A stretch of 64,000 nt of DNA from an uncultured Ignavibacteriales bacterium. Its GTDB lineage: Bacteria; Zixibacteria; MSB-5A5; GN15; FEB-12. This document shows positions 3,312-22,998 of this stretch, piece by piece. The DNA is taken from positions 36,939-100,938 of the forward strand of contig CAZVHP010000007.1 of assembly GCA_964627305.1 (NCBI GenBank). Reading direction: 5' to 3'. The notes under the pieces were generated by a model, which was not told where the DNA came from, searched no databases, and worked only from the letters and a program-made list of their open reading frames with translations. Each line of letters opens with the position of its first letter. Positions within the stretch are counted from its first letter, which is position 1. The translations under genes and the position numbers were made by a program.

Positions 3312-3839
3312 CTACTCCTTCTTGATGAACCGCACGTTCTCCGCCACCGTCACCTCAAACGTGGCCTCCGCCGGAACCTCCGCCTGGCTCCCCTTGATGA
3401 ACAACCCGAAAATGAACAGATAGGACACCAGCTTCTTTCCCTTGCCCCTGTACTCTGGGGTGTCACCGGCAACAGGTATGGTGTTCAGCTCCTGGGGGAC
3501 AAACGGCCCCCTGGGATTGATGCTCTCAAAGCTGAGCTTCAAAGCACCCGGCTTGCCGCCCTTGCCGGCCCGCTTGCCGACAGTCACCACGGCGGTGCCC
3601 ATCGCGCCCGCTTCAACCAGCGTCACACCACCCATCACTATGGGATCGACCAGGTACACCGGCACCTTGTCACCGACCTCAAACTTCGCCGAACTGACAG
3701 TGGAGTTGGGATCAAATTGTACTTTGGCCTTGCTGCCTTTCGGCAACTGGATACCGGCCGCCATCGAGACAGCCGCCCAGGCAAGCACGAGCAGCATCGT
3801 GACCGCAAGGGTATTCCGGATAGTGCGCGAGGGCATCAT
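3312..3839 (-). CDS. Exported protein, possible VirB10/TrbI-like beta domain; last gene of the T6SS operon
   Basis: Sec signal peptide (no lipobox). Pattern LPKGS..VSSAKFEVGDKVPV..PIVMGGVTLVEAGAMGTAVV..GKGGKPGAL, then a hydrophobic stretch LVSYLFIFGLFIKG and VPAEATFEV. Starts 2 bp after the upstream stop. Confidence 0.55.
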   Translation of the reverse strand: MMPSRTIRNTLAVTMLLVLAWAAVSMAAGIQLPKGSKAKVQFDPNSTVSSAKFEVGDKVPVYLVDPIVMGGVTLVEAGAMGTAVVTVGKRAGKGGKPGALKLSFESINPRGPFVPQELNTIPVAGDTPEYRGKGKKLVSYLFIFGLFIKGSQAEVPAEATFEVTVAENVRFIKKE

Positions 3840-3841
3840 AC

Positions 3842-6067
3842 TCAGTTTCCTCCAAGCTCGAGTTCCGGCAACTTCTCTGCCGGATTGTTTAGCAACGTAA
3901 ATGAGACAACAGTGCCGCTGTTCGGGAACGTGACCTCTCCATTGAGCTTATACAGGCAGTACTTGTCCTTCAGCGGCAGCAGCGCCGTCGGATCCTTGCC
4001 CCAGGTCTCATCGGTATCGATATGCGGCAGGTCAAACGCGATATAGATGTCATGGCCCGGGCGCCAGGAAATCGTCTTGACATCGCCACCCACGAACTGC
4101 CCCATCGTCTCCCACTTTGGCGTGCCACGGTCAGGAACAACCTCAATATGCAGATGGCCGTTGTCAGGGACCACATCGACCCGGACCTGGTAGGTCTGTT
4201 CCCGGTTCATCGCACTGGCAGCACTGATGTAACGGTTGACAGCCTCTCGCTCGCGGGCATAGCGGTTGCCCGACAACTGCCCCAGAATACCCTGCAACTC
4301 CCGCACCGCGCCATCAAGCCGGTACGCCGGATCAGGGTTGCTGTTGATCTTGCGAGCGAGCTGCTTGAGCGTCTCGGCCGCCTCGGTTGCATCGACAGCC
4401 AGCACCTCCTGCGTCCTGACCCCTCCGATCACACCGGACATGGCCCGGTACAGGGCCCTTTCACCCGGCTCAAGGCTGGCAGCATTGACCTCCATATTGA
4501 ACGAAATCAGCGTATCCAGCTTCTGCCAGCAGGCGGTATTGGTACGCTCCCCGGCACACTGCGAAAACTGCGCCCACACACGGGCAGTGCGCGCGGCACT
4601 GCCAAACACACTCGTGGAAGAATCCTCCGTGAGTGATTCCAGATCATAGGTGAGCTGCCGATAGCTGTCAGACTCACTCAGTTGCCGCGTCGAGGGATCC
4701 ATCCGCGGCCATTGATCCTGCTGACGTACAACTTCCTCCATCTGCTTTTGCAGACGCGCCAGCTTGTCCGTCAGGCTCTCCGCCTGCAGATCGCGATACG
4801 TGGCCGAAAGATCCCGCGCCGGCGGCATGAACTCACGGAACACCTTCCGCACAAGCCACCTCCCCGAGTAGTGCGAATACGCATCGGCGATAGCTCGCCG
4901 GTCCGATGGCGTCGTTGCGGCCGCCTCGTGGTTATACTTGGAGAGGATATCATCCTCAAGACTGGTCGTTCGACCAAGCTGCCACCACAAGTGCCACATG
5001 AAGACGCCGGAGCAGAACACAAGCCACACGAGAACAAGATTGCGCACTACCCGGCGCACCTTCCGAAAACCCTCGAGCTGGCGGTTGCGAACCATCGACT
5101 TGAGCAGCCAATACACCGGGCGCCTCACCCCGATCGGACGAATAGGGTCCGGCGGCTTGTAGATACTTCGCCCAAGTTCGGCACCAATCTTCTCCGGCTC
5201 AGTTCCCACGCTGGAGACGAAAAAAACCTGGAAGTCCAGCGTGCGCCCCACCGTTATCTTCAAGAACGCCTTGAGTTTGATCAGCACCTCGCGCACACTG
5301 CCGGCCCACTCCGGGTCAGATTGAATGCGCGGGTTGGCCAGTATCTGCTCAACGAACTCGTCATAGTCCTCAGCAAGTACCGGCTCCTCACTGGGATGAA
5401 TCAACGACACATGCTGATCACCCTTGAAACCCGGAAGCACATCGGCCTTGGTAACAACGAGGCCGACCGGAATCGGCAGCCGCTGATCGAGCGGCCCGAG
5501 CTGCTGGATGATACTCTCAAACGCCGCCGCGTGCGACTGCCACTGCGTCGGCGAACCAAGCGTCTTCGGATCGAAGAAGAACAGCAAACCGTCGCACCCC
5601 AGAAGAAAGTCCATGACCTTCTCCGCCGAATTGTCAGCGGCGCCAATCGCGATCGCATCACCGGCGTAGTCATAGGTAACCACGGGAAGCTTTTTGGAGC
5701 GGTCAAGATTGGCCACCATCTTCATGACCGTGTCCTGCCGCGTGAGTGGCGGGAACTGCGGGTCCTGCCGTACATCGACCATCGTCCCCTGACCCGCCGC
5801 CGGGGTCAAACCCCACATCTTCCGATGGTTGGCCAGCAACTCGCCGGCCGTGACACTGTCGCTGACCGACAACTGCAGATCACGAGCCGTCTTGCAGTCA
5901 TCATGCAGCACCGACAGATACACCGTCTTGCCGCTGTTGCTGTGGCCGACAAGACCAACCCGAATACCATCCGGCCACTGGTAAGCACTGTCGCTTTTGT
6001 CCTGCTTGCTCCCGGAGGCCGCTTTCGCACCCTTCTTCCCGAATTTGAGTAGCTTTGCTATATTCAC
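3842..6067 (-). CDS. TssM/IcmF-like membrane protein with N-terminal P-loop GTPase-type domain
   Basis: GHSNSGKT (Walker A/G1), DYAG (G3), LPIPVGLVVTKADVLPGF (G4; resembles the TssM PVYxxxTKxDLLxGF motif). One TM helix (~aa 345-363), then a helical region and a beta-rich C-terminus. Lies two genes after tssK. Confidence 0.6.
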   Translation of the reverse strand: MNIAKLLKFGKKGAKAASGSKQDKSDSAYQWPDGIRVGLVGHSNSGKTVYLSVLHDDCKTARDLQLSVSDSVTAGELLANHRKMWGLTPAAGQGTMVDVRQDPQFPPLTRQDTVMKMVANLDRSKKLPVVTYDYAGDAIAIGAADNSAEKVMDFLLGCDGLLFFFDPKTLGSPTQWQSHAAAFESIIQQLGPLDQRLPIPVGLVVTKADVLPGFKGDQHVSLIHPSEEPVLAEDYDEFVEQILANPRIQSDPEWAGSVREVLIKLKAFLKITVGRTLDFQVFFVSSVGTEPEKIGAELGRSIYKPPDPIRPIGVRRPVYWLLKSMVRNRQLEGFRKVRRVVRNLVLVWLVFCSGVFMWHLWWQLGRTTSLEDDILSKYNHEAAATTPSDRRAIADAYSHYSGRWLVRKVFREFMPPARDLSATYRDLQAESLTDKLARLQKQMEEVVRQQDQWPRMDPSTRQLSESDSYRQLTYDLESLTEDSSTSVFGSAARTARVWAQFSQCAGERTNTACWQKLDTLISFNMEVNAASLEPGERALYRAMSGVIGGVRTQEVLAVDATEAAETLKQLARKINSNPDPAYRLDGAVRELQGILGQLSGNRYAREREAVNRYISAASAMNREQTYQVRVDVVPDNGHLHIEVVPDRGTPKWETMGQFVGGDVKTISWRPGHDIYIAFDLPHIDTDETWGKDPTALLPLKDKYCLYKLNGEVTFPNSGTVVSFTLLNNPAEKLPELELGGN

Positions 6068-6127
6068 GCGAGTCCTGTTCCCACAGTTGAGTTTACTCTG
6101 TCCATGATGCCACCACCACTCCTGTCA

Positions 6128-7045
6128 TCAGCGACCCCGCACGGTTGTCAGCCTCTGGTTAAGGTCCTGAAGCTTCGAATCGCTGTAACCAGACCACAAC
6201 GCGGGCACCAGAAATCCAACAGCGATCCAGACGACAATCAACAGAACCGTCGCCACATACGCCGGACGCCGCTGCCCGAACATCAGCGCCGTATACCGGT
6301 AGCTGCGGAACAACCCCTTGAACTTACCCAGTGCGTCAACAAGTGCCTTCTGCACCCGCTGCAGAAACGTGCCCGGCTTCGTGCGATAGTCCCACGTCTC
6401 AAGATACATCTCCACCAGCTTGTTCGTACGAGACCACCGTTCGAAAAAACCCACGCGCTGCAGGTGAAACTCCAGGGTCGAGCGATCCGAAAGGAGGCTG
6501 TCACCAAGCTGCAGACGCCGGCGACACAACTCCATGATGCGATGCGCATCGCCCTTCGCCTCGAACTGCTCCGGCGTCAGGTCAACCGCCAGCGGCCGAC
6601 CATAGGCGTTCATGAAGTTCGACAGCTCAATCAGAAAGAAACTGTGAAGCTGAAAGCTGTTGTTAAGCGCCCCCGCCCGAAACAGCTTCGGCAACAACTG
6701 CTCCTCAATATACGGCACGTCCTGCCTGACCTCTCGCAAACCCCGGACGTAACTATAGGCCTGGTTGGAACGGTTATCCACATCGACTTCCATCTCAAAC
6801 CACGTCACCAGCGTCTGCACCGTCAGCTCCCGCAGATCCGACGCCTTGAGCGGAGCCTTGTGGATAAAATCCAGAAGAATGTAGTCGGTCTCAACCGCCT
6901 GGTCGCGGTATTCCTGCAGGGCGCCGAACAGGGCGCGGATACCGTTGTACGTCTGCTGGAAAGCCCCGAAATCAAACGCCGAGAAGTTCGTTTCGTAGGT
7001 ACCGATATACCTGAAGAGGTCATCTATGTACTGTCTTACTTTCAT
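6128..7045 (-). CDS. Membrane protein with C-terminal anchor, TssL/DotU-like by topology and position
   Basis: About 265-aa soluble helical region followed by a single C-terminal TM (VATVLLIVVWIAVGFLVPALW). Sits between tssK and the TssM-like gene. I recognise no DotU sequence motif. Confidence 0.5.
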   Translation of the reverse strand: MKVRQYIDDLFRYIGTYETNFSAFDFGAFQQTYNGIRALFGALQEYRDQAVETDYILLDFIHKAPLKASDLRELTVQTLVTWFEMEVDVDNRSNQAYSYVRGLREVRQDVPYIEEQLLPKLFRAGALNNSFQLHSFFLIELSNFMNAYGRPLAVDLTPEQFEAKGDAHRIMELCRRRLQLGDSLLSDRSTLEFHLQRVGFFERWSRTNKLVEMYLETWDYRTKPGTFLQRVQKALVDALGKFKGLFRSYRYTALMFGQRRPAYVATVLLIVVWIAVGFLVPALWSGYSDSKLQDLNQRLTTVRGR

Positions 7046-7046
7046 A

Positions 7047-7082
7047 CTGCCAATCTCTCTGCCAGTTTCTCTGCCAATCTCT
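7047..7082. repeat. 3 x 12-bp tandem repeat filling the tssK/tssL-like spacer
   Basis: CTGCCAATCTCT CTGCCAGTTTCT CTGCCAATCTCT read directly from the sequence. Confidence 0.85.
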
Positions 7083-7086: not shown

Positions 7087-8508
7087 TTAATCAACAATGT
7101 AAAGCTTGATATCGGCCTCTGACAAGTTGTTTAGCTGCTTCGCATCCTTAAGACCCCGGAACCACAGACCGGCCCTCCCGGCCGAATCCACCCGAATCAT
7201 GTCCTGTCCCCGCAGCGCCACCTTGCTCCCGAAAGTCGTGGTATCAATCACCATGGGATTCGTCTCCCCAAGACTGACCTCGCCAAATCCGATACGAACA
7301 TTGATCGCATTCCACTGGCCCTGATCCATCAGGTCCTTCTCCATCAGAATAACACAATCGCTCACGCTGACCGGTGAGGTCAGGTTCAACGACACAATGG
7401 CAAAATCGTTCCAGTCCTCGCGCACGCACTCCTTGTGGCTGACAGCGGCGAAGGTCAACCCCTTGTAGCTGATCGTATCGCTGGCCACCGGCTCCGGCGC
7501 AATGTCCCCCTGCGCAAGAAACGCCACGAGCTGCTGCAAAGTAGTGAGCAGCTTGTCGATTTGCTCGAAGTGCCTGCCGAGATCGAGATGTGTGTATTCA
7601 GCTAATAGAAAACTGTCGATGGTTCGCGCGAAGGTGCGATACTCGGTGCGCAACTGCTTCTGGAAGAAACGGTCGGTCAGGAAGTCCTTGACACCCGGCA
7701 TGTACGCCAGCAGCGTCGTCAGCACCCGGAACAAACTCTTGTACTGATTCACTATCGTCAACGGATGCGGAGCGTTGCGCCCCAGTGAAACCGTATCGAA
7801 CCTCGCCGCCGCATGTAGTCCAAGCTGACTGACCAGATGCCTCAGATTCGAGACCAGATCAGCCCCGGCCCCGGCGGGCGTCAAACCGCTCGCCACGCGC
7901 GTAATGGCTGTCATGAGACTGTCAAGCCGGTCACGAAGCTCCCGAACCTTGCCATACAAACGCTCATGTGCCGCCACCGAAACGCACGGCGGGAAGTAAA
8001 AAGGCGACTCCACCAGGCTGTCACCACTTACCTCCAGTTGCGCGATCTGCACACACCGCGCCTGCGACACGGACGGCTGCTGCCCCACATGAACCTCGTA
8101 GGCCGGCACACAGTACGGCAGACGGGGTACCGGCTCGTTCGGATCCGCCTGCCCCACCTGCTTTTTCGCCTCAGCGGCAATCACCACCCAGACCCCGATA
8201 GCTTCTGTCACCCCCTCGGCCTCCCCGATCACCACCCCCCCCTCGCCGGGAGCGATCTCAATCAGGCTGCCATCCTCGGTGACGGCATGACAACGTGTTA
8301 CCTCAACACGGACCGCACTGCCCCGCAGACTGGCATGATACTCAAGCGCACCACCGTCACTGCTCGGGATCAGCCCGTAGTTGTCACCCACCGGCCGGCC
8401 ATACCACCGGGACAGCTCCTCGAAATATCGCTCCTGGTCGGCAAGGTGATTCCGGGATACCAGCATCCCGTCCTGCCAGTTCACTGAGCGGAGTCTGAAT
8501 TCACTCAT
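7087..8508 (-). CDS. tssK: T6SS baseplate subunit TssK (T6SS-iii-like N-terminus)
   Basis: N-terminal VNWQDGMLVSRNHL, NYGLIP, CHAVTEDGSLIEI, GQADPNEPVPRLPY, YFPPCVSV and a later EYTHLD motif match Bacteroidota-type TssK. Confidence 0.8.
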   Translation of the reverse strand: MSEFRLRSVNWQDGMLVSRNHLADQERYFEELSRWYGRPVGDNYGLIPSSDGGALEYHASLRGSAVRVEVTRCHAVTEDGSLIEIAPGEGGVVIGEAEGVTEAIGVWVVIAAEAKKQVGQADPNEPVPRLPYCVPAYEVHVGQQPSVSQARCVQIAQLEVSGDSLVESPFYFPPCVSVAAHERLYGKVRELRDRLDSLMTAITRVASGLTPAGAGADLVSNLRHLVSQLGLHAAARFDTVSLGRNAPHPLTIVNQYKSLFRVLTTLLAYMPGVKDFLTDRFFQKQLRTEYRTFARTIDSFLLAEYTHLDLGRHFEQIDKLLTTLQQLVAFLAQGDIAPEPVASDTISYKGLTFAAVSHKECVREDWNDFAIVSLNLTSPVSVSDCVILMEKDLMDQGQWNAINVRIGFGEVSLGETNPMVIDTTTFGSKVALRGQDMIRVDSAGRAGLWFRGLKDAKQLNNLSEADIKLYIVD

Positions 8509-8532: not shown

Positions 8533-9513
8533 TTATCCGTTAGCCGCAGCCACCGGCTTGCTGCCGGCACTGTCCGTCCGCACTTTTACTGCGCCCCCGG
8601 TCAGACACCACGATGTCCCCAGATACGCCGCTCGCTCCTGCGTGCCGATCGAGCGACCGCATACCGGTAACCTGAATCGCAGACGCCATTGCAGGTGCCC
8701 CGGGTTGCACAAAGCCATTATCTGTTCAAGCAAGCTGCGCCGCGCCCCCCCGGGCAGCCACTCCTCTATGTGGGCGTCACCTATCTCACACAGCTCAAGC
8801 TCATAGTACGAATCAAGGTCGGTGAAACGATCACCAAGCACCCAGTCATCGCCGAGCCGGCTGAACGACGAGTTCAGACGCGACTGAATACTCCCGTCAA
8901 TTGGGTGCTCAGACGGCAGATTTTCGTGGACCTCCATCCGGCAGTCCAACAGCAAACCGAGTACCCACGCCATTCCCTGGGGATTGCCCGACCATTCATG
9001 GAAGCTCCGCATCAGGGCTGTCAATAACCCCAGCCGAGAATCGGCCGTACAGGCGCGGCGATGAGCCGGACCGAAAAGATCAATGATCCGCGCATAGTGA
9101 CTCGGCTCCGTCACCGCCTCCTCATAGCGCATGCGTTCAAACGCCATCAGCGCCGACTTCTTGACCGCATGACCGTCGATTGGCGCCATCATGCCGCGCG
9201 CCCCGGATTCCCAGTGTGAACTGACCGATGACGAATGCCCGGAAGAGGTGAAAAACTGCCAGGGCATCACGTCGACAATGCCGCTGATGCCCACATCGAG
9301 CACCACCTCCGTCTCGTCCGACAAGAGCGTGCCCGCCTCAGGATCCTGACTGCGAATCTGCCCGTCATAGTCCTCATACGCGCCAACCAACCTGACAAAA
9401 ATCCGCTCCGGGGCTACCCCCAGCCTGACAAGCTGATTGATCGCCGCGACGAAACTCGGGCGACATCGCCAATCAACCAGCCGCGGCATGACCCTGGCAG
9501 TACGCTCACTCAT
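8533..9513 (-). CDS. tssG: T6SS baseplate subunit TssG with N-terminal PASTA-like domain
   Basis: Overlaps the tssF stop (ATGA). GIVDVMPWQFF resembles the TssG G-x-YDxLPExLF motif; SRLGDDWVLGD and YLGTSWCL are TssG-like. The first ~75 aa are PASTA-like (GQIRSQDPEAGT..VVLDV). Confidence 0.72.
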   Translation of the reverse strand: MSERTARVMPRLVDWRCRPSFVAAINQLVRLGVAPERIFVRLVGAYEDYDGQIRSQDPEAGTLLSDETEVVLDVGISGIVDVMPWQFFTSSGHSSSVSSHWESGARGMMAPIDGHAVKKSALMAFERMRYEEAVTEPSHYARIIDLFGPAHRRACTADSRLGLLTALMRSFHEWSGNPQGMAWVLGLLLDCRMEVHENLPSEHPIDGSIQSRLNSSFSRLGDDWVLGDRFTDLDSYYELELCEIGDAHIEEWLPGGARRSLLEQIMALCNPGHLQWRLRFRLPVCGRSIGTQERAAYLGTSWCLTGGAVKVRTDSAGSKPVAAANG

Positions 9514-11186
9514 CGCTCACTAACCTCAATCACAAACTGCGTATTCACGACCGAGCGCTGCTTCAGAAACCGCTCCAGCCGTGACCTCAGCAGATTGACT
9601 TCCTCCGCACTTCCAAAGTCCTCAGGATTGATCGTCAGGTGCACCACGATACACCGCTGCACGCCACCGTTGATCCTGCGAGTCCCGCTGCGACACTCCG
9701 CCGCCAGAATGCGCGGGTCGAACGCCCGCGACCACATGGCAACATCGCCAAAAGTCAAAGCGCGATCGCGCTGTCGCAACCGAACGGTGACCTCCTGCAT
9801 GAGCTGCTGACGCGTCCGAGCAGGAATGGCTCCCGCCGTCGATGTCAGGTTCCGCACCTCCGACAAACCCGGATGACCTTCATACATGCGAGTGATCCGG
9901 CCCGGCTCAATCCCGTTGGCCGTAACACCATCAGTCACACTATACTCGATACTGAGCGAATTGGGCACACCCTCGGCGGCGTGCATGAAATCAAACCACA
10001 GCACGACATGACCGTCGCGCTCCGTAAAGGTGTATCTCGGCTCCGAATCGGCGCTCTCGGTACTGTCAGCCGGCAGGTACTGCCTGCCGTCGGAATCGGT
10101 GACCCGCTCGATCGTGAGCACACTGTCCGCATCCTCCGGTATCACCACATCAATCAACGGCGCCCCGCCCGTGTGACGAAACAGCGTAAGCGTATACCGG
10201 TTCGCAACAACTATAGCATTGAAAACGAAATTCACCGCTCCGCTCAACAGCTCGCGGTTGCCGCGCTCCGGCAAATCAATGCGCAACCAGTAACAGCTGT
10301 CGGCACCACTCAGAGCAGGCTGCCCCAAAGACGAAGCCGACAGCCTCTCCAGCATTGCCGTCGGCGGAGCACCCGCGCCCCAGCGGCTGGAGATATCGCC
10401 CGGAAAAACCACAAACGCATCCAGCAGATCGCTGAACAAGTCACCGCTGGTCCGCAGCCCCCCCCAGTCATCAGCACCGGCCGGAGTAATAACCCGATCG
10501 ATCCATGAGGACTTCCCCGGACAGAAACCAAAACCGTCACCAACCGCCCCGGAGGATTGACCCAGCGGGTGCCAGTACCCCCATTGAAACTGAGACCGAA
10601 GCTCGGCGGGACAATCGAGAAACACAACAGCATTGTTCAGAGCCGACGGCGGCCCGGCAAATGCGATACCGACAAACAGCTCCCAACGATCGCCATTGGC
10701 CGGCCGGCTCTCGATAGCAGCCCTCATCTCACGATCCACCGCAACGCCCGGACTTATCGGCAACACGAAATCGCCATTGCGAAGCACCATATACCGGCAC
10801 GTCGCATCAAGAACCGGCCAGTCGGTCAGAGGGGAGAAGAAGTACGTCCGGGCACCCTCGCGTGACTCACGGTAGAAAAAACGAGTGTGAGCATCGATCT
10901 CCACCACCGGATCAACCGTGCTGCACTGCAGAACACAATGGGCCGGTGTCGGCCACCGCCCGGCATGACCACAGACCGTCTTCAGAAGCGCGCTTCTGGC
11001 AACCTCCCACGTCTGCTCCAGGTCAGACTCAAGCGCCGCAAGCTCATGAGCGCTCGCCTGCAACAGCATGCGCAGAACCGGATCCGCCCGCTCAGGAGAA
11101 CCAGGCGTATCGGTTCGGAATCGGCGCAAGGTAGCATACAACTCCGTGAAGATCTGTTCCTGGGTTCGCTTTGCCGCACGTGCCAT
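9510..11186 (-). CDS. tssF: T6SS baseplate subunit TssF
   Basis: DPVLRMLLQASAHEL, PTPAHCVLQ, FFSPL and a baseplate-J-like C-terminus (TDGVTANGI..TSTAGA..LRQRDRALT..D). Lies between tssE and tssG. Confidence 0.8.
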   Translation of the reverse strand: MARAAKRTQEQIFTELYATLRRFRTDTPGSPERADPVLRMLLQASAHELAALESDLEQTWEVARSALLKTVCGHAGRWPTPAHCVLQCSTVDPVVEIDAHTRFFYRESREGARTYFFSPLTDWPVLDATCRYMVLRNGDFVLPISPGVAVDREMRAAIESRPANGDRWELFVGIAFAGPPSALNNAVVFLDCPAELRSQFQWGYWHPLGQSSGAVGDGFGFCPGKSSWIDRVITPAGADDWGGLRTSGDLFSDLLDAFVVFPGDISSRWGAGAPPTAMLERLSASSLGQPALSGADSCYWLRIDLPERGNRELLSGAVNFVFNAIVVANRYTLTLFRHTGGAPLIDVVIPEDADSVLTIERVTDSDGRQYLPADSTESADSEPRYTFTERDGHVVLWFDFMHAAEGVPNSLSIEYSVTDGVTANGIEPGRITRMYEGHPGLSEVRNLTSTAGAIPARTRQQLMQEVTVRLRQRDRALTFGDVAMWSRAFDPRILAAECRSGTRRINGGVQRCIVVHLTINPEDFGSAEEVNLLRSRLERFLKQRSVVNTQFVIEVSER

Positions 11187-11213: not shown

Positions 11214-11597
11214 CTACTCAACAATGCAACTGACATCAAGCATCTTCTCAACGCCACCCTCACGGTACGTGGCCGTTACCTTCACGATCAGACCGATTTG
11301 CCGATGCTTCCCCACATCACCCTCCGAAAAAACAACATCGACATTATACAGCCGAGGTTCATGAATACCAATGGCAGTACGGATACTGGCCCGAACATCC
11401 GCCTTACTGGCCGTGTGCAGGTCGGTAAACTCACGTTCCCACAGCATACACCCGAACTCCGGCAGAAACGGCAACTGCCCCACGCGCGTCGAGATTATCA
11501 GCCTGACCGAGTTCACCAGGCTGTCCCTGAGATTGCACCGTGGGAAATGACCCTCTTCAAGAGTCAGGGGAAGTGAAAGGTATTCCGAGCGTTCCAT
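11214..11597 (-). CDS. tssE: GPW/gp25-family baseplate wedge protein TssE
   Basis: YLSLPL..CNLRDSL..LIISTRVGQLPFLPEFGCMLWEREF..HEPRL. Start overlaps the vgrG stop (TGATG). Confidence 0.88.
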   Translation of the reverse strand: MERSEYLSLPLTLEEGHFPRCNLRDSLVNSVRLIISTRVGQLPFLPEFGCMLWEREFTDLHTASKADVRASIRTAIGIHEPRLYNVDVVFSEGDVGKHRQIGLIVKVTATYREGGVEKMLDVSCIVE

Positions 11598-14012: not shown

Positions 14013-14169
14013 AATCAATACCTCCTGGGTTTTGCTTCAGTCCTGTTTATTGATCAGAAACTCTGTTTGGACTTCGTCAAATTAGTGACTATTCGGTTAT
14101 CTCGTTTTCAATCAGTAATCCGCGTGCGGCAGAGCTGCAACAACCGGGCCGACTGCCTGCTTGTACGGC

Positions 14170-15594: not shown

Positions 15595-15609
15595 ATATCC
15601 AAACCTCAC

Positions 15610-16053
15610 TTATTCGCTTAGCAGATCAACATAGTATCGGGCCACCTTCAGCAGGGCAGCCTTGGCCTTCTCGTCCTGCAACACCTTCTTCAGCGCCGCG
15701 TTCTTCTTCAACTGCTTGTCAAGATCGTTAAGAATCTCCTTGCGGTAGTACGTCCGCCGCAAATAGTCGTTCTGCTCGATGAGCTGTTTGGACTGGAAAT
15801 CCTTCATCGACCCGACCCTGAACTCAGCCGTAGCAGACTCGCCCGTTGTCGTCTCCAACTCTGCCTCGAACGACGGGTGGAACTTCTCGAAAACGTCCTT
15901 GAGATTGTTGCACTCAACGGGTACGGCTTCGGCATCCTCGTCGTTGTTCAGCCTGGCGACGTACAAGGATCGGTTGGATGGAAGAAGCTCAACGGGAATG
16001 GAATCATCTTTGACCTTCCGCTCCCGGGCTCCCAGAAAGAACTTGTTGGACAT
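15610..16053 (-). CDS. tssB: T6SS contractile sheath small subunit (T6SS-iii TssB)
   Basis: LPSNRSLYVARL..VFEKFHPS..MKDF..QNDYL..KQLKKN. Directly upstream of tssC. Confidence 0.85.
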   Translation of the reverse strand: MSNKFFLGARERKVKDDSIPVELLPSNRSLYVARLNNDEDAEAVPVECNNLKDVFEKFHPSFEAELETTTGESATAEFRVGSMKDFQSKQLIEQNDYLRRTYYRKEILNDLDKQLKKNAALKKVLQDEKAKAALLKVARYYVDLLSE

Positions 16054-16080: not shown

Positions 16081-18624
16081 TTATGCGCCTGTTGTCTCTT
16101 GCTTGCCAATTATGTAGGCGTCATCCCTGACATCGACGTTCACCCGGTCCCCGGGGGCAAGGGTGCCGGTGATGATGTCAACAGACAGCCTGTTTATGAT
16201 ATCCCGCTCGATTATCCTCTGTATTGGCCGCGCTCCCAGCTCGAATGAATAGCCGTCCCGTGCAAGCTTCGCCAGCGCAGCCGGACTGAGTTCTGCCTCG
16301 ATATCCTGATCCTTCAGCAATACCGAAAGCTGCTCAAACTCAAGCCGCGCGATCGTCTGCGCCTGCTCCTGAGAAAAGCTGTGATAAATGATAATATCAT
16401 TGAGCCGGTTGAGAAACTCCGGCCGGAACTTCGTGAACAGGAAATTACGCACCTGATCCATGTCGACCTCGCGGCCCTCACGGTCGGCATCGAGAATCAT
16501 GTCCGCCGCGTAGTTCGAGGTCAACGCCACAATGCAGTTGGAGAAATCGACCGTCCGGTTCTGCCCGTCGGTCAGACGCCCGTCATCAAGCAACTGCAGC
16601 AGCACATTGAATACATCAGGATGCGCCTTCTCGACCTCATCGAACAACACAATCGAGAACGGCCGCCGACGGACTGACTCCGTCAAAACCCCGCCCTCCT
16701 CGTAACCCACATACCCCGGCGGTGCACCGATCATCTTGGCCACCGAATGCTTCTCCATGAACTCCGACATATCAAGACGGACCATCGCATTCTTGTCATC
16801 AAACAGAAACTCCGCCAGCAGCTTCGACAAATACGTCTTGCCCGTCCCCGTCGGCCCCAGAAAGAGGAACGAACCCACCGGACGATTGGCCGGCTTCAAT
16901 CCCGCCCTCGCCTTGCGAATGGCATTGGCAACACCCTCAATAGCCTTGTCCTGACCGACTATCTTCGAAGAAAGATACGCCTCCATATTCAGCAGCCGGT
17001 CCTTCTCCGCCGTCATCATCTTCGCAATCGGAATACCCGTACGGCGCGCGATCAGGGCCGCAATATCAGAAGCATCAATGCGCGGCTCAAGAGTCTCCAC
17101 TACGCCCTTGAGCGCCGTACACAGTTTCCGCTGCAAATCGAATCGCGGACGCAGACTGCCGCTCCTGGGCAACTCCACACTCTGCAGCTCTCCCTGGAGT
17201 TTGTGCCCCCAGTACTCGATCAGGCGCCGCGTGTTGCGGTCAAATTCACGGTACTGCAAAACCACCGGATCATCACACTCATCCGTGTCGGCCAGCACCG
17301 AATGCCCGTCGACAATCACCTTGTCCAGCTCAGCCATCTGGCTCTCGACCAGCGGCAACAGCCGGATGGCATATTCCTTCTTCACCGAAAACTCACTGGC
17401 GGCCTCGTCCATGACATCAAGCGCGATATCCGGCAGATTACGGTCGCTCAAATAGCGCTTGGAGTAGCGGGCAGCGGCTCGGATGGCCTCAGGCAATACC
17501 TTGATCTTGTGATGATCCTCATAACGGCTCGCCACGCCCGCGATGATCGCAATCGCCTCCTCGACCGGAGGGGCCTCTACCTTGATCTTCTCGAACCGTC
17601 GCAACAGCGCCTTGTCCCTCTCCAGATGCTTGGTGAACTCCTCCTCGGTCGTCGCCCCGATCAGACGAAGCTGCCCGCGAGCAAGCGCCGGCTTCAGCAG
17701 ATTGCCCGCATCGATTCCACCCCCACCCGCACCGGGAGCAATCGTGTGGATCTCGTCAATAAACAGGATGATCTGCCCGGACGACTTGACGATCTCTCCG
17801 ATCAGCGCCTTCAGCCGCTCTTCAAACTCGCCCTTGTACTTGGCGCCCGCTACCATCGCACCCAGATCGAGCTCCATCAGCCGTGCTCCCCGCAACGCGG
17901 CAGGAACCTGATCGCTGACAATCGCCTGCGCCAGACCCTCCACAATCGCCGACTTGCCCACCCCGGCACCACCAACCAGCACCGGTGAGTTCTTCCGACG
18001 GCGAAGCAGAATCTGTATGGACTGACGAAGCTCCGACTCCCGCCCGATCATGGGATCATACTCGCCGGCCGTGGCAAGGTTGGTCATGTCAATGCAGTAG
18101 CGAAGGGCCCCACTCACTCGCCGCGAGGACTTCGTCTCGCCACCGTCCTGTTCGGACTGCGCCGGGCCGGAAGTGATCTGTTCGACCGACTTGCTCTCAG
18201 CAATGGCCCGATAAATGTCTTCCTTGGCAAGCTGCAGCTTGGCGCTCACATAGTCCGCCAGCGGTGTCTGCGGATCGAAAATGGCCAGGAATATATGCTC
18301 CGGCTCCACCAGCGTGTCATACAGCTTGCCCTTCTCCTGCTGGGCACGGCTCAGTACCGACTGAACCGACGGAGAACTGGCCACATTGTCAACCGCATGC
18401 GGCGCCTTACGCTGATCCTTAAGGTACAGCTCCGTGATCGAGGCCACCATCGACGGTGACTTGTCCAACTGGTTGAGGATGGACTCCACCTCCGTACCCT
18501 CGTGTCGAACAGCCGCGAGCAACAGATGCTCGACCTCGATCTCCCGGTGCCTGAATTCAGTGGCGATCTCCCGAGCCAACTTGATTACGGCTCGCGAATC
18601 AGACGAAAAACTGGCAATATCCAT
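16081..18624 (-). CDS. tssH: ClpV/TssH AAA+ sheath-recycling ATPase (ClpB family)
   Basis: Clp N-domain, D1 GGAGVGKS / LFIDEIH, D2 GPTGTGKT / [14 protein letters not shown]. First gene of the structural operon. ATG 18624 preferred because a promoter lies inside the longer ORF. Confidence 0.85.
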
Positions 18625-18723
18625 GAAATCCCGCGCTTTGGAACCTGAGTTACATTTGAAGGATTGCACCAAGACAAGCCGAATGCGAAATATGACCCTA
18701 TGTACAACCCGGTTAAGTAAGAA

Positions 18724-18752
18724 AACATACTCTGCGCCCACAGGGGTGTCAA
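18724..18752 (-). promoter_or_regulatory. sigma70-type promoter for the clpV-tssBCD operon
   Basis: TTGACA-N17-TATGTT on the minus strand, about 100 bp upstream of the clpV ATG. Confidence 0.65.
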
Positions 18753-18935: not shown

Positions 18936-19367
18936 TTACCCATCAACAGGACGGAAAGACTCAATTATGCGATCCATCTCCACCCCCCGCGTCTGCAGCG
19001 TCTTCTTCGAAAAATTGCCCGAAAACGTGTAGCCGGTGCCGTCAAGAATCATGTACAGGTTCCGCTTGTATATGACCGTGTTGTCAACCGGAATCCACTT
19101 GTATATACACTCATGCGCCGCAGTGCCGTTGCCAAGCGTGATCGCCTCGTCCTTGAGAACCTCCGTTCCCTGAAGCTGCTCCAGCGCCGCGTCAATACGC
19201 ATACGGGCGAAGTCTGCCAGATCGGCCCCCGCCGTATCAGGATCAACCACCAGTTGTATCATGTGCTGTACGCCGCTGTCATCAGGTCCCATGAACACAT
19301 ACACAGTGCGATTATCCCAGCCTTTGGGCAGCTCGACCACGAAAGGCGGTATCTGCGATTTACCCAT
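18936..19367 (-). CDS. DUF1795/DcrB-like (Eag-type) T6SS adaptor
   Basis: LPKGWDNRTVYVF..DLADFAR..LEQLQGTEVL..IIESFRP, a PsbP/DcrB-like pattern. Ends the PAAR-effector cassette. Confidence 0.7.
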   Translation of the reverse strand: MGKSQIPPFVVELPKGWDNRTVYVFMGPDDSGVQHMIQLVVDPDTAGADLADFARMRIDAALEQLQGTEVLKDEAITLGNGTAAHECIYKWIPVDNTVIYKRNLYMILDGTGYTFSGNFSKKTLQTRGVEMDRIIESFRPVDG

Positions 19368-19388: not shown

Positions 19389-20159
19389 TTACTCGGTTTC
19401 CCGCAAACGCAGCCGCTCGAAAACAGCCCGCGTCTCACTACGGTTACGCGCCAACTGCCAGTCTCCGAGGAAACGGTTAACATTTGCCGTGTTCTCATCT
19501 ATTCGCTGCCGACGCTCCGCGTCGCTTTCCGCCGGCTCCGGCAGACGTATCCGGGGCGGCTCCGGCAATTTGCCAAGCCAGTCAACCGCCTCGCGACGCA
19601 GCCACGGATCGGCTGTCTCATCAGTCGCAATCCCGGCCAGAATCGGGACAGATTCCGCTCGGAACTCCACGCCAAACTCCAACACCGCCGACCTGACCTC
19701 GTGGAACTCGATATAGATACTGTGTGTCCCGGGCGAGAAACACCGATCGGGCACTATCTGATGCAAACGAAAGGACACAGCAACACTGCCGCCGGCCGGC
19801 AGATCCAGCGTCGCCGGGACCGGCCCGGTCAACTCGCCCGTCGCATCCATCGTGCTGGGGTGAACCATGTACAGGGCATCCTCTGACCCATCCCGCGCCA
19901 GCATCAAATGCAGCGCCTGCGAAACCTGCGGATCATCCATCGAAACCGCCCGCCCGCCATCGTTTGCAAACGTAACGGCCAGTTCAAGGTCCTGCCCCAT
20001 CGCGTACACCGGAATATGATCATACATGCGAACCGGAACCGGCGGATCTACCACCGCCAAAGTAATGCTCACTTCCATTGTTCCTCCATTGCATCCTGAC
20101 ACCAGGAAACAACTAAGTGTCCAAATCAACAGTGCCGTAACTGCCTGCCGCATCCTCAT
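19389..20159 (-). CDS. Lipoprotein, putative immunity protein
   Basis: Signal peptide with lipobox LVSG-C, Ig-like middle and HEAT-like C-terminal helices. Starts 5 bp after the effector stop. Confidence 0.55.
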   Translation of the reverse strand: MRMRQAVTALLIWTLSCFLVSGCNGGTMEVSITLAVVDPPVPVRMYDHIPVYAMGQDLELAVTFANDGGRAVSMDDPQVSQALHLMLARDGSEDALYMVHPSTMDATGELTGPVPATLDLPAGGSVAVSFRLHQIVPDRCFSPGTHSIYIEFHEVRSAVLEFGVEFRAESVPILAGIATDETADPWLRREAVDWLGKLPEPPRIRLPEPAESDAERRQRIDENTANVNRFLGDWQLARNRSETRAVFERLRLRETE

Positions 20160-20164: not shown

Positions 20165-21847
20165 TCAGGTGCTGAACCCGCGCAGCTTCCTCACATCGGC
20201 GTTGCTGAATGTGTTCGACGCAGCATACGGCGTCATCAGGCCGCTGGAGGAGTGATCCCCGGTACCGAAACGCGCCCGCTCGAAAGCCGATTTGGTCCCA
20301 TGGCCAATCTCGTGCCGACAGACAATCTGAAGCCGCGCCGCCGTGCCGTAGTTCTTGAATATCACCGAAATCTGCCCGCGGTTAAACCCCTGCACATTCC
20401 TCCAACGACCATCAGGATCGCCCATCGAGGTCAGCCCCGAACCGGGATTGGCAAGGTTGATCCGAATCCCCGCCGGCCAGAAATTCGTGACGCCGTCGGC
20501 CTGGCCCGACAGCTTCGGGTGATAATACTGAACACCCAGAAGCACATTACGCCCCGACGGTATCCCGGCATCCGCAAACCAGGCATCGCACGCTGTGCCA
20601 TACTCCCTTACAATTGCCTCAAACCAGAGACGAGCCTTGTTCTCAATTGCCGTCTTGGCATTGTTCTTTTTCGTCACCAGGGTGGCATCGGTGCCGGTGT
20701 ACGCGTAGGCCGACAACTGGTCCGCCGTCGGGCGCATCTGGAAAGCTGAAGTTTCCAGCCGTTCCGGTGAAAGATCATTGGGCCACGACTTCGACCCCCC
20801 TCCGCTGGTGTACAGCCCAATATACCGGACAGTCAACGAGGCGGCCAGCGTCGTCACACTCCCGCGCGAATACATGACGAAGGCATCGGTCTCGTAAGCC
20901 GGATCGATCTGGGCCTCAGTGGTGGCGTTGTCAAGGTAGGTCTCGCCGCTCATCGTATAAATGCCGCTGAAGTGGATTTTGCGCCACACGGTCAACTCCG
21001 GACCGCGCTCCCGACGCATGACCGTCGTGCCGTCCGCCCAATACACGGTGGCAAGAATACGATACGTATCCCCACCCACGCCCGACGGCTTGAACTTCAC
21101 AAAGGCCTTACCCCGATCAGACCCCGAGGTCAGCATCTGCACCCGGCAGGACTGCCGAAAGCTGTTGTCGCTGGCCGCTGTACAACGGCTGTCTGCGTCC
21201 CAATAAACCGCATTCGCATCCCCGCCCTTTCCAAGACGAAGACTGGAACCGCTGTTATACAGGTAAGAACTCGTCGAGGACGCGTTACTGCCTCCCGCCT
21301 CGAAAGAAAACGTCACCTCCATAGCGCACTCGGCGCGCGCTTCCTCACCGTTGCTCCGTCGGATAGTCACGGTCACGGCCGTATCAAGCGCCTGCCCGGC
21401 GTTGCTCATGTCAATGCGCCGGTTGGTTGTCCGGGTCCAGATATACAGAGACTGTACCTCCACCCGCACCTGGCGCGTGCGCGTGATCGCCGTACCAACC
21501 CGCAACGTCACCGTGTAAGGCGACTTCTGAGGCGTCACCAGCCCTCCGGCCTCATCACGGCCGTTCCAGTTAAAGGTACTGCGACGGTCAGCGCCGAGTC
21601 CCAGAACACCACTGTTATGCACTGTCCGGTTGTCGCGGTCCTTGATTGTCAGGCTGACCTGCGCCCCCTGTAACGATGCCCCCCGTCGAAACTCATACGT
21701 AATAGGGCAATTCTCGGCCCCGGGCGCGAAGTACTCCGGGGCCTCAAGCGTTGCCTCGCCATCGACCGCAACCGCATCGACACGGCGGGCCGTACCCGCA
21801 CTGTGCCGCGCGCGGCGCCCCCCCGAACCTGAGTCGCCGCTTCCCAT
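20165..21847 (-). CDS. Putative T6SS effector with C-terminal zinc metallopeptidase (zincin) domain
   Basis: No signal peptide. N-terminal FlgD/Ig-like segment (FNWNGRDEAGGLV..PYTV). C-terminal HEIGH..DH..GLM (HExxH, third His, Met-turn). Lies between PAAR and the lipoprotein. Confidence 0.6.
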   Translation of the reverse strand: MGSGDSGSGGRRARHSAGTARRVDAVAVDGEATLEAPEYFAPGAENCPITYEFRRGASLQGAQVSLTIKDRDNRTVHNSGVLGLGADRRSTFNWNGRDEAGGLVTPQKSPYTVTLRVGTAITRTRQVRVEVQSLYIWTRTTNRRIDMSNAGQALDTAVTVTIRRSNGEEARAECAMEVTFSFEAGGSNASSTSSYLYNSGSSLRLGKGGDANAVYWDADSRCTAASDNSFRQSCRVQMLTSGSDRGKAFVKFKPSGVGGDTYRILATVYWADGTTVMRRERGPELTVWRKIHFSGIYTMSGETYLDNATTEAQIDPAYETDAFVMYSRGSVTTLAASLTVRYIGLYTSGGGSKSWPNDLSPERLETSAFQMRPTADQLSAYAYTGTDATLVTKKNNAKTAIENKARLWFEAIVREYGTACDAWFADAGIPSGRNVLLGVQYYHPKLSGQADGVTNFWPAGIRINLANPGSGLTSMGDPDGRWRNVQGFNRGQISVIFKNYGTAARLQIVCRHEIGHGTKSAFERARFGTGDHSSSGLMTPYAASNTFSNADVRKLRGFST

Positions 21848-21903
21848 GCTATCCGCCCTGACCGAAAACGCTCAATGTGACCTGTTTCATCGCCTGCATA
21901 GCA

Positions 21904-22998
21904 TCACGCATCCGCCCGGGTAGTTGCGCCCGAGGTCGGAAATTCGACCGACCACTGACCGGGTGGCACGTTCTCCACCTTCTTGTATCCGTTGGAATCC
22001 AGCGTGCCTTCCAGTATCTGGCCGTTGTCGAAGATCAACCGATAGGCGGCGTTCGGAACCACGTTCCCCTCACCGTCCTTCAAACTGATCTCGACATAAT
22101 CGCGGTACTCCAACAAACCCGAACGCGCCTGAGCCTGCCCAACCGTCGCCATGAAATAGTACTCCGGCATGGAATAGCCGCGCTGTAGCTCCTGCGCCGT
22201 CTGGACATCATCCGTATCCTCAGTGTACCGGTATTCCCAGTCAGCCTCGATCTTGCCACCGGACACCGTAACCTTAATGGTATCAATCAGATCGTCAGCC
22301 GAGGAGATATCCCGCTCGAAAATGCGAAACTCAGCCTCCGTACCCGACTCAAACCCCGATACATCGGCTGACAACGTTACCGTGTCGCCAACCCGCGCCT
22401 GCTTCTCCGACCACCTGGCATTGGTGATAACGAACAGCGCCAGTTCGTAATTCCCCTGCTTGACGCCCGTTTTCTCCACCTTGCCGGACAATGCCCCCTG
22501 TGATTGACTGCCGTCCGGCGCCTTCATCTCGTATTTCACACCGACAATCGGCTTACCGCCCTTGTCGACAACCTTCACATTCAGAAAATGCCCCTCGTCG
22601 GCCTCCGCGTCCTTGTCCGCGATACTCGGCGCCGCGGCATTCCCACTACCCCCGCCACCGCCGGCACCACCACCCGCGCCGCCACCACCACCGCCGGAAC
22701 CGATCAGCACAGTCGGGCAGCCGGGCGGAAGAATCGTGTCCGGCGGACCCGAGCAGGTAAGCATGTCCCCAACACAGGCTGCGGGCAGATTACCAATAAG
22801 AACCGTCGGACAGCCGGGCGGCATAATAGGCCCCCCCACATGCGGAGTCGGAGGCACCGTGGGATTCGCCATCGGACAGGTATGCATATCCCCAACACGA
22901 GCCGCCGGCATACCGCCAATCAGAACCGTAGGTTCTCCCTTGACAATAACACCACCATGAACAGTAGTATCACCCATGCGAGCCGCCGGTTTGCCCAT
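21904..22998 (-). CDS. PAAR protein with Gly linker and transthyretin-like/Ig-like extension
   Basis: PAARMGD, PAARVGD, PAACVGD repeats with His/Cys metal ligands, a poly-Gly linker, and two D..G.P.....Y......G....G.L TTR-like units. RBS AAGGAG before ATG 22998. Confidence 0.9.
   Translation of the reverse strand: MGKPAARMGDTTVHGGVIVKGEPTVLIGGMPAARVGDMHTCPMANPTVPPTPHVGGPIMPPGCPTVLIGNLPAACVGDMLTCSGPPDTILPPGCPTVLIGSGGGGGGAGGGAGGGGGSGNAAAPSIADKDAEADEGHFLNVKVVDKGGKPIVGVKYEMKAPDGSQSQGALSGKVEKTGVKQGNYELALFVITNARWSEKQARVGDTVTLSADVSGFESGTEAEFRIFERDISSADDLIDTIKVTVSGGKIEADWEYRYTEDTDDVQTAQELQRGYSMPEYYFMATVGQAQARSGLLEYRDYVEISLKDGEGNVVPNAAYRLIFDNGQILEGTLDSNGYKKVENVPPGQWSVEFPTSGATTRADA

Follow-up and report, generated by a model that had tools for sequence, protein, structure and literature searches.

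Four classes of type VI secretion systems (T6SS) are distinguished in the portions of a 2026 review that deal with their classification, and T6SS-iii is there confined to the Bacteroidota (PMC13584744). In the sections of the survey by Bongiovanni et al. (2024, PMC10781749) devoted to this class, 443 T6SS-iii loci are counted in Bacteroidota, with no such locus among over 20,000 other genomes; they combine TssB to TssK and ClpV with a membrane complex of TssN, TssO, TssP, TssQ and TssR (TssNOPQR), where T6SS-i has TssJ, TssL and TssM (TssJLM), and the ancestral T6SS membrane complex is left open, as being of the TssJLM type, of the TssNOPQR type or none. A further group of proteins that bears on the present case is the DO-GTPases, which together with GAP1 proteins form the constant core of variable-effector conflict systems, for which a GTP-driven switch has been proposed, and some of which are membrane-anchored, according to the pertinent passages of Kaur et al. 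(2020, PMC7159879); the passages of that text on DO-GTPases make no mention of a T6SS context. Here, we describe a locus in a stretch of 64,000 nucleotides (hereafter, the window; positions 36,939 to 100,938 of contig CAZVHP010000007.1, assembly GCA_964627305.1) from an uncultured bacterium whose lineage is Zixibacteria. All of the evidence is computational. We conclude that the locus probably encodes a complete, chromosomal, cell-anchored T6SS of a new subtype, equipped with its own membrane complex, which is encoded after tssK, and present in about half of the Zixibacteria species.

The locus consists of 16 open reading frames, co-oriented on the minus strand between window positions 3312 and 22998 and separated by gaps of -4 to 194 bases, the widest of which lies between clpV and the gene for a DcrB-family protein. 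In the order of transcription, these are PAAR, orf560, orf256, the DcrB-family gene, clpV, tssB, tssC, tssD, vgrG, tssE, tssF, tssG, tssK, orf305, orf741 and orf175, in agreement with the single, tightly coupled locus, with the same genes in the same order, that had been set out in a preliminary description of the window; the Pfam families agree with it as well. Pfam lists a family for 13 of the 16 proteins, 11 of them above the curated cut-off. No Pfam family was found for orf305, orf175 and orf256, nor did NCBIfam or relaxed thresholds yield one. The host genome (3.28 Mb in 33 contigs, 95.7% complete, 0.7% contamination; the window lies on contig 7) contains this one T6SS locus. The 12 genes of its conserved core are the following:

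16081 to 18741, minus strand: clpV (tssH), sheath-recycling AAA+ ATPase (AAA_2, 216.8 bits, plus Clp_N and ClpB_D2-small)
15610 to 16053, minus strand: tssB, small sheath subunit (PF05591, T6SS_VipA, 37.3 bits)
14170 to 15609, minus strand: tssC, Bacteroidota-like form of the large sheath subunit (PF17541, 249.9 bits)
13602 to 14018, minus strand: tssD (Hcp), tube protein (PF17642, 70.6 bits)
11597 to 13456, minus strand: vgrG, spike (Phage_base_V, PF04717, 81.9 bits; Phage_GPD, PF05954, 53.9 bits)
11214 to 11597, minus strand: tssE, gp25-like baseplate wedge (PF04965, GPW_gp25, 51.9 bits)
9510 to 11186, minus strand: tssF, baseplate (PF05947, 21.7 bits, short of the cut-off of 25; position conserved in related loci)
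8533 to 9513, minus strand: tssG, baseplate (PF06996, T6SS_TssG, 59.3 bits)
7087 to 8508, minus strand: tssK, baseplate connector (PF05936, T6SS_VasE, 28.6 bits)
6128 to 7045, minus strand: orf305, tail-anchored inner-membrane protein and proposed baseplate dock (from topology, model and gene position)
3842 to 6067, minus strand: orf741, proposed envelope-spanning core (PF19993, DO-GTPase2, 31.2 bits, cut-off 27)
3312 to 3839, minus strand: orf175, small Sec-secreted, non-lipidated protein and proposed periplasmic partner (from signal peptide and position)

ClpV and the proteins of the tail, tube, spike and baseplate all have their homologues among T6SS parts; judging by sequence, they lie nearest to those of the Bacteroidota T6SS-iii, outside the clade that the latter form. 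TssC and TssD had been recognised in the preliminary description as being of the Bacteroidota type, and their matches to PF17541 and PF17642 bear this out; VipB (PF05943) was absent among the families listed for TssC at E <= 0.01, and TssC is 27-32% identical to DUF5458 proteins of Bacteroidota. When compared with the T6SS-iii locus of Bacteroides finegoldii, ClpV matched with an E-value of 2e-120, TssC with 1e-61, VgrG with 8e-46, TssB with 2e-13 (28% identity, E 1.5e-13), TssD with 1e-12, TssE with 4e-12, TssK with 8e-12 and TssF with 1.2e-9. When other Zixibacteria supplied the reference, in the form of four canonical T6SS-i loci, the only matches were those of TssE (1.5e-5), TssG (3e-6) and TssB (0.007); the T6SS-i stretches compared may not all contain clpV and vgrG, so that the comparisons of these two genes are one-sided. 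TssG is the sole part that looks nearer to T6SS-i; for eight tail and baseplate parts, the Bacteroides T6SS-iii appears closer in sequence than do these Zixibacteria T6SS-i loci. The loci of other Zixibacteria were used as the T6SS-i reference instead of a match on a Ralstonia megaplasmid, which was dropped because it carried no annotation and was unlike a T6SS-i locus. ClpV, a double AAA+ Clp protein encoded just upstream of tssB here and in related loci, scored 669 bits against ClpV1 (TIGR03345; cut-off 885) and 856 bits against ClpB, also below the cut-off. TssK matched TIGR03353 at an E-value of 5.5e-14, likewise below the cut-off, and had no match in a sequence search of the PDB.

The position of the tail was further explored in a careful maximum-likelihood tree of 41 TssC and sheath rows, which is based on this one protein and covers T6SS-i, Bacteroidota, Zixibacteria and eCIS (extracellular contractile injection system) sequences. 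The T6SS-i TssC were split off by a branch of about 8 changes per column with 100/100 support. One clade (90/92, 88% of bootstrap trees) united the six Bacteroidota TssC, which represent three classes, and every Zixibacteria row, the TssC of the window included, fell outside this T6SS-iii clade. Support for the backbone, which relates the Bacteroidota to three Zixibacteria lineages, was low (49-65), with long branches flagged and the root not fixed. The eCIS outgroup joined family f5 at 65/1, that is, on the Zixibacteria and Bacteroidota side of the tree and not on that of T6SS-i. Collectively, these comparisons indicate that the tail is T6SS-iii-like yet not a member of the Bacteroidota clade.

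Searches for the known membrane complexes were negative. No match to DotU, IcmF-related, T6SS-SciN or ImpA_N (representing TssL, TssM, TssJ and TssA, respectively) was obtained in the host genome, with Escherichia coli controls positive for all four, and none to TssN (PF17555), although the control for that search was silent. The working positive control consisted of the 17 proteins of the B. finegoldii T6SS-iii locus, run against the whole host genome: VgrG, TssK, ClpV, TssF, TssE, TssB and TssC all found their counterparts in the window locus; no match at E <= 0.05 was obtained with TssN, with TssR or with either TssO-annotated gene; and TssP, a PKD protein, matched only generic PKD domains on other contigs. 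Across 285 Zixibacteria genomes (198 of high quality), TssN exceeded the cut-off in none, with two weak matches (E 3-5e-4). The preliminary description had noted the lack of TssNOPQR, TssJ and TssA, and this extends to the 95.7%-complete genome. Neither tssNOPQR genes elsewhere nor sheath genes nested within the Bacteroidota T6SS-iii were found: TssN stands at 0 of 285 and TssC lies outside the clade. Among the 12 core genes, a hydrophobic segment occurs in orf305, orf741 and orf175 only.

Compared with T6SS-iii as portrayed in the parts of PMC10781749 on this class, the Zixibacteria locus is of like kind in the sequences of its ClpV, sheath, tube, spike and baseplate (22-33% identity to B. 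finegoldii), and in both systems TssA is absent and a membrane protein that docks on TssK, by prediction in the present case, is encoded beside tssK. It differs in that TssN, TssO, TssP, TssQ and TssR are lacking and a GTPase is part of the proposed anchor, and in that its genes form one strict operon, whereas the Bacteroidota loci are scattered.

The three genes that follow tssK are as conserved and as tightly linked in related loci as the tail genes. We examined one genome per species of the GTDB set, in which 111 stretches encode an orf741 relative and 80 loci were kept, and 80 metagenome loci from a second scan with a variant alignment. Directly upstream of orf741 lies orf305 in 70 of the 71 species loci with enough upstream DNA, the exception being locus L011, and in 59 of 62 metagenome loci; tssK precedes orf305 in 63 of 64 and 45 of 47 loci, respectively. 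Every full-length orf741 is directly followed on its 3' side by orf175 (71/71 species loci, 44/44 metagenome loci), and the order from tssB to orf741 is fully colinear in 46 of 48 species loci and 24 of 28 metagenome loci. The order beside tssK is thus kept in related loci, and, together with the absence of TssNOPQR and TssJLM and with the placement of TssC outside the Bacteroidota clade, it supports the distinct T6SS subtype that the preliminary description had proposed. This support does not extend to the evolutionary intermediate named there as the other option, since the sheath tree has no firm root.

The phyletic distribution tells the same story. The orf741 profile was found in 145 of the 285 Zixibacteria species genomes (107 of the 198 of high quality), as was TssC of the PF17541 kind (145 of 285; 107 of 198), and the two occur together in 143 of the 147 positive genomes; the four discordant genomes, two with TssC only and two with orf741 fragments only, are 58-77% complete. 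The trio of orf305, orf741 and orf175 is thus in near-perfect step with the T6SS-iii-like tail. PF06761, a domain of TssM, is present in 22 of the 285 genomes, mainly of families f7, f19 and f20, and none of these 22 genomes carries the orf741 system. The T6SS-i loci of these other Zixibacteria, exemplified by loci L163-L173 (genomes G276, G281, G274, G267, G025, G269, G284, G280, G201, G119 and G114), match VasE (378 bits), DotU (199 bits), IcmF-related_N (278 bits) and VipB (434 bits) and also hold SciN, IcmF-related, IcmF_C and ImpA_N/VasJ, with the models for TssJ, TssL, TssM and TssA scoring 33-378 bits. Zixibacteria use two kinds of T6SS, which are mutually exclusive.

The orf741 family is small and specific: from a library of 1.84 billion representatives, its profile retrieved only 175 proteins with E <= 0.001, and 70 with E <= 1e-30. 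Where a relative of orf741 or orf305 is named, the label is nearly always Zixibacteria or candidate division GN15; some records are labelled Ignavibacteriales, Krumholzibacteriia, Latescibacterota, Calditrichota, Deferrimicrobium or Saccharimonadales, and these were not counted as spread beyond Zixibacteria, their binning being uncheckable.

The first protein of the trio, orf305, has one hydrophobic segment, located at the C-terminus (residues 260-288) and followed by about 20 residues predicted to be periplasmic; the basic residues before this segment place the helical domain in the cytoplasm. In the AlphaFold model (predicted local distance difference test score, pLDDT, 88.6), an all-helical domain leads into a long C-terminal helix, and all 100 relatives are about 300 amino acids long. 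Foldseek returned no PDB match to the model at E <= 0.001, the top results being generic helical repeats, and the ESM Atlas yielded no usable feature matches and only low TM-scores (template modelling scores); as modelled, orf305 is a new fold. The preliminary description had ascribed TssL topology to it, and the topology stands. No sign of homology to TssL was seen: none of 40 family members matches DotU, hhalign against the Zixibacteria TssL profile gave 0.4-0.8%, and no fold match was found.

Modelling supports the prediction that orf305 binds the conserved C-terminal head of TssK. The complex of TssK (41-row alignment) with residues 1-260 of orf305 (40-row alignment) received a median score of 0.61 (0.60, 0.61 and 0.65 in the three runs), versus 0.00 for the best control, and the runs share at least 97% of their contacts, with a partner pLDDT of at least 81. 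The mark applied to such models is reached by 58 of 80 solved complexes and by 2 of 110 mismatched pairs, a benchmark that is roughly valid here, our own alignments having been used; since orf305 is unlike any solved structure, the pass is unlikely to reflect a memorised one. The predicted interface is C-terminal on TssK, comprising residues 368, 400-404, 412-418 (the GLGETDP region), 421, 435-438 and 451-452, and 14 of its 20 residues are at least 90% conserved versus 23% overall, a proportion reached by 0 of 10000 random sets. On orf305, it comprises residues 85-111 and 148-151. The C-terminal head of TssK faces or contacts the membrane complex in the systems studied so far, including T6SS-i, according to the corresponding passages of PMC10781749.

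The second protein, orf741, combines four parts in a model with a pLDDT of 82.5, namely, a GTPase domain (residues ~35-310) with the P-loop GHSNSGKT, a membrane helix (339-362), a periplasmic helical domain (387-620) and a beta-sandwich (624-730). The hydrophobic segment is single and lies within a long helix, and the basic residues ahead of it put the GTPase on the cytoplasmic side. Foldseek found 22 matches to the model at E <= 0.001, all of them GTPases (YcjX, atlastin, G-alpha) aligned with the N-terminal domain only; the periplasmic domains had no Foldseek match, and residues 380-741 gave low TM-scores and no usable matches in the ESM Atlas. DO-GTPase2 is matched by all 37 core and all 22 variant members of the family. 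Two sets of free-standing small DO-like GTPases (17 and 13 sequences), taken from the lower ranks of the representative-protein search (among P0310-P0366), align with the GTPase of orf741 at 99.9-100% in hhalign (E 1e-33 to 1e-45).

The third protein, orf175, belongs to a family with a signal peptide ending in an AxA cleavage site and followed by a conserved (K/T)(V/I)QLPxG motif. Of 124 homologues, no more than 4 contain a lipobox-like string, which suggests a soluble periplasmic protein rather than a TssJ-like lipoprotein; no SciN match was found, and hhalign against TssJ gave 0.1%, with a TssJ profile of 2 sequences only.

Variant lineages show which of these proteins are constant. In families f5, f16 and f17 and in some metagenome contigs, the same operon is found with a TssC 36-39% identical to that of the window. 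There, tssK is followed by a gene for a tail-anchored protein of 302-332 amino acids, which is an orf305 homologue (hhalign 97.9-100%; TssL < 1%), then by one for an orf741-like protein of 617-832 amino acids with one membrane helix, and the place of orf175 is taken by a cytoplasmic GAP1-N2-like protein of about 275 amino acids. GAP1-N2 (PF20013) was matched in all five of the proteins scanned (E 2.6e-7 to 0.018), once above the cut-off; their genes lie at 6213-7049 in locus L183, 8942-9835 in L189, 11783-12616 in L096, 10216-11043 in L150 and 6089-6898 in L182. The window contains no GAP1-like gene. Because orf175 is replaced in these lineages, the constant pair is the orf305-like dock and the orf741-like GTPase, with a variable third partner. 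Longer orf741 variants of 780-841 amino acids (L083, L084; P0256, P0260, P0262, P0269 and P0274) follow tssK and an orf305-like gene on metagenome contigs without a taxon, and among the phylum matches listed there is no orf741 open frame of more than 780 amino acids; the longer variants may mark an unsampled lineage or another phylum.

The likeness to DO-GTPase/GAP1 systems, as these are presented in the pertinent parts of PMC7159879, lies in the DO-GTPase2 match of all 59 orf741 members scanned and in the GAP1-N2-like neighbour of the variants. The difference is that in orf741 the GTPase continues into a membrane helix and a periplasmic arm, within a protein that belongs invariably to a T6SS operon.

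We propose that the three genes after tssK encode a membrane complex that replaces TssNOPQR or TssJLM. In this scheme, orf305 would sit in the inner membrane by its tail anchor, with its cytoplasmic helical domain docking the C-terminal head of TssK. The single-pass inner-membrane protein orf741 would hold its GTPase in the cytoplasm and extend a periplasmic arm, made of the helical and beta domains, towards the outer membrane, and orf175 would be a secreted subunit that completes the periplasmic part, bridging the periplasm together with the domains of orf741. Binding or hydrolysis of GTP by orf741 probably acts as a switch gating assembly, baseplate docking or firing, with a GAP1 partner in older lineages. 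ClpV would recycle the contracted sheath, so that the machine stays in the cell, and the PAAR protein, an HExxH protein, a lipoprotein and the DcrB-family protein would constitute an effector cassette carried on the spike.

Several observations weigh against this proposal. The periplasmic part of orf741, about 380 amino acids, has half the length of that of TssM, and the locus revealed neither an outer-membrane lipoprotein nor a secretin-like part through which the outer membrane might be reached. The predicted interface of orf305 shows no excess of conservation (33% versus 31% elsewhere in the protein), and orf175 is not universal, given its replacement in the variant lineages. Linkage is broken in some genomes: in family f17 and in three metagenome loci (L125, L156 and L158), the orf741-like gene is found apart from tssK, directly before a PAAR gene, and in f17 (L184-L187; genomes G252 and G253) it lies about 0.6 Mb from the tssK-orf305 operon in two closed genomes. 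In the genome behind L011, orf741 and orf175 are 420 kb away from tssC. Finally, pairs of DO-GTPase and GAP1 have been described as switches of conflict systems (PMC7159879), and a regulatory role fits as well as a structural one.

This last point leads to the alternative that survives best, which we nevertheless regard as unlikely. It holds that the trio is an accessory GTP-dependent switch, consisting of a domesticated DO-GTPase and its membrane partners, which responds to signals from the envelope and licenses assembly, and that the real anchor is unrecognised or encoded elsewhere, perhaps in a kinase/CsgG-like cluster next to the locus. Consistent with such a switch are the kinship of the orf741 GTPase, which is closest to DO-GTPase2 throughout the family and to the free-standing DO-like GTPases, and the GAP1-N2-like product of the next gene in the variant lineages. 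It would also accommodate this cluster, which comprises five genes on the plus strand (23235 to 29621), lies divergent from PAAR, by Pfam encodes a Ser/Thr kinase with PEGA, two CsgG-like TPR proteins, a protein of 376 amino acids and one of 306, and homologues of which adjoin 36-40 of 50 related loci. However, the family of the 376-amino-acid protein is missing from the T6SS-positive families f16 and f17 and present in families with T6SS-i only or without any T6SS. An anchored T6SS, moreover, requires membrane parts, and the rest of the 12-gene core has no hydrophobic segment; orf305 is predicted to sit on the very region of TssK that contacts the membrane complex of T6SS-i; and the structural and switch roles are compatible with each other.

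Could orf305, orf741 and orf175 instead be extremely diverged forms of TssL, TssM and TssJ? The system would then be a hybrid by descent, and the Bacteroidota would have replaced an ancestral TssJLM. The layouts invite this comparison: as in T6SS-i, tssK is followed by a gene for a tail-anchored protein and then by one for a large inner-membrane NTPase, which has a helical domain in the periplasm and a beta domain at the C-terminus; past the second helix of TssM, orf741 repeats its order of domains, the P-loop domains of the two are distant relatives, and contact of the dock is predicted with the C-terminal head of TssK. IcmF-related_N is the second commonest Pfam match in the orf741 family (22 of 37 core and 13 of 22 variant members), all matches being below the cut-off, as with the orf741 of the window (13.8 bits, cut-off 25). 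In hhalign comparisons against ten Zixibacteria TssM, the core orf741 family reached 21% over whole proteins (E 1e-3) and 56% when its GTPase part was compared with the NTPase part of TssM, the core and variant GTPase families combined reached 82.5%, and the variant family alone reached 92.9% (E 4e-7); the P-loop, TK(A/C)D..GF and FFxS motifs were in register in these GTPase alignments, and the TssL and TssK controls stayed below 1%. The C-terminal beta domain also aligned, colinearly, with the IcmF_C region (17%, E 1.4e-3).

Yet the free-standing DO-like GTPases match the TssM NTPase of loci L163-L173 equally well or better (94-97%, E 1e-8 to 1e-11) and match orf741 far better, and therefore the likeness between orf741 and TssM is clade-wide and offers no proof of descent. 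Canonical TssM, for its part, gives no DO-GTPase match at E <= 1. In orf741, the IcmF-related and IcmF_C domains of Pfam are absent, as is the N-terminal helix pair of TssM, so that there is one membrane helix instead of three; the helical periplasmic parts of the two proteins align at only 0.6%. The partners fare no better, since orf305 shows neither sequence nor fold similarity to TssL, and orf175, at 0.1% against the small TssJ profile, is not lipidated. The Zixibacteria orf741 system also lacks the DotU, IcmF-related and SciN signatures, and its tail proteins are not of the T6SS-i kind. We consider descent of the whole trio from TssJLM quite improbable. The relationships place orf741 inside the clade of DO-type GTPases and TssM at the edge of that clade, which suggests that the NTPase of TssM belongs to, or borders, the DO-GTPases; we conclude that orf741 is TssM-like in layout and not a member of the TssM family, as far as can be read from its sequence, and common descent of the two anchors is possible. 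The TssM-like P-loop of the preliminary description is accordingly a real likeness, of a domain that is a DO-type GTPase and shares it with its clade, and the hybrid character, in the sense of a T6SS-i membrane complex, was not borne out.

A released or free contractile injection system, of the eCIS or T6SS-iv kind, would be a very improbable reading of the locus. The T6SS-iv of Amoebophilus and the eCIS are likewise contractile sheath-tube machines, and the window sheath is nearer to eCIS than the T6SS-i sheath is: the PDB sequence search with TssC recovered phage and eCIS sheaths only (11 sequences at E <= 1, best 2.9e-6), and in the sheath tree the eCIS outgroup falls on the Zixibacteria and Bacteroidota side. 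In contrast to these systems, however, the Zixibacteria locus has a ClpV gene, directly before tssB, a sheath split into TssB and TssC, TssK and TssG, and three dedicated membrane or periplasmic proteins in its core, and among its 16 genes, each of which has been assigned, none encodes a tape measure, a tail fibre or a cap. To our knowledge, T6SS-iv lacks ClpV.

That the locus is an ordinary Bacteroidota T6SS-iii, whose tssNOPQR genes escaped detection in a 95.7%-complete draft of 33 contigs or through divergence (even in Bacteroidota, TssO, TssQ and TssR often cannot be identified from sequence, whereas nearly every T6SS-iii has TssN and TssP, as stated in the sections of PMC10781749 on these components), is largely refuted by the lack of TssN over the cut-off in all 285 Zixibacteria genomes, by the position after tssK being held by orf305, which has no TssN match, and by the TssC of the window lying outside the Bacteroidota clade.

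Upstream of clpV lie the four genes of the proposed effector cassette:

21904 to 22998, minus strand: PAAR spike-tip protein with C-terminal prealbumin-like domains (PF05488, PAAR_motif, 87.9 bits, 3 stretches)
20165 to 21847, minus strand: orf560, putative cargo effector (HEIGH motif, of the HExxH type, near the C-terminus; FlgD_ig below the cut-off)
19389 to 20159, minus strand: orf256, candidate immunity protein, predicted to be a lipoprotein (N-terminal hydrophobic segment, residues 5-24, with LVSGC at its end)
18936 to 19367, minus strand: DcrB-family protein, candidate effector adaptor or chaperone (PF08786, 40.4 bits, cut-off 27.2)

The PAAR frame could be extended to a TTG at 23064, but the conserved N-terminus MGKPAARMGD begins with the ATG at 22998, the start adopted in the preliminary description; weak matches of this protein to SpaA and CarboxypepD_reg were also recorded. 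By its motif, orf560 is a putative metallopeptidase effector, and the position of orf256 next to it points to a role in immunity. The DcrB family (PF08786) presumably includes the Eag-type adaptors of T6SS effectors. Cassettes that run from PAAR to DcrB with variable content in between recur in related loci. The reading of these genes as PAAR, effector, immunity protein and adaptor in the preliminary description is thus reasonable, the PAAR and DcrB families having been found, with the effector and immunity roles remaining putative.

The surroundings of the locus are less constant. In most related loci, a homologue of the kinase/CsgG-like cluster stands convergent to the operon just after orf175; in the window, it lies on the other side. 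What follows orf175 at this edge of the window differs accordingly, with a valyl-tRNA synthetase gene or fragment (87-2270) and a class I methyltransferase gene (2438-3280), both on the plus strand, opposite to that of orf175. The 376-amino-acid family was found in 160 of the 285 genomes of the phylum. The cluster is possibly associated with the T6SS, the linkage being frequent and not obligatory. As a candidate for the missing outer-membrane part, it was rejected because its phyletic pattern does not track the T6SS.

Farther into the window, a protein of 1611 amino acids (29777-34612, minus strand) combines a beta-helix with BACON domains and four PKD domains and has a sorting domain of the Por_Secre_tail/CHU_C type at its C-terminus; with this architecture it is likely a substrate of type IX secretion. 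The guanine-cytosine skew flips from about -0.1 to about +0.2 near positions 34000-35000, where its cumulative minimum lies, and keeps the new sign over the rest of the window. Genes on both sides of the flip are mostly on the minus strand, and the open reading frames near it encode an ATP-binding cassette ATPase, a sigma-54 activator and histidine kinases, with no replication gene seen among them. The flip may correspond to an origin or terminus of replication.

Taken together, the locus is best read as encoding a new subtype of T6SS, with a membrane complex of a third type. We found no description of a T6SS in Zixibacteria or of a T6SS with a DO-type GTPase in the literature searched, which left out subscription journals and supplements. 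A second phylum thus emerges with a T6SS-iii-like tail, which is combined with what would be a third set of anchoring proteins, and the same phylum uses, in a mutually exclusive manner, the ordinary T6SS-i. This constellation would provide a natural comparison for understanding how baseplates adapt to different anchors, what role the NTPase of TssM plays and how these machines evolve. Zixibacteria are a widespread lineage of sediments and sludge, and models of the TXSScan type would miss their T6SS, so that contact-dependent antagonism would be under-counted there. More tentatively, since we hold this broader view to be somewhat short of an even prospect, the tails would have been re-anchored at least three times, the third complex consisting of a TssK dock of new fold and a membrane-bound switch of the DO-type GTPase kind, accompanied by a GAP1-like partner in the older lineages and gating firing or assembly. 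This complex would have no recognisable part in common with TssNOPQR and, with TssJLM, at most an NTPase domain of distant kinship. If this is true, the motor domain of TssM would descend from the DO-type GTPase switch family.

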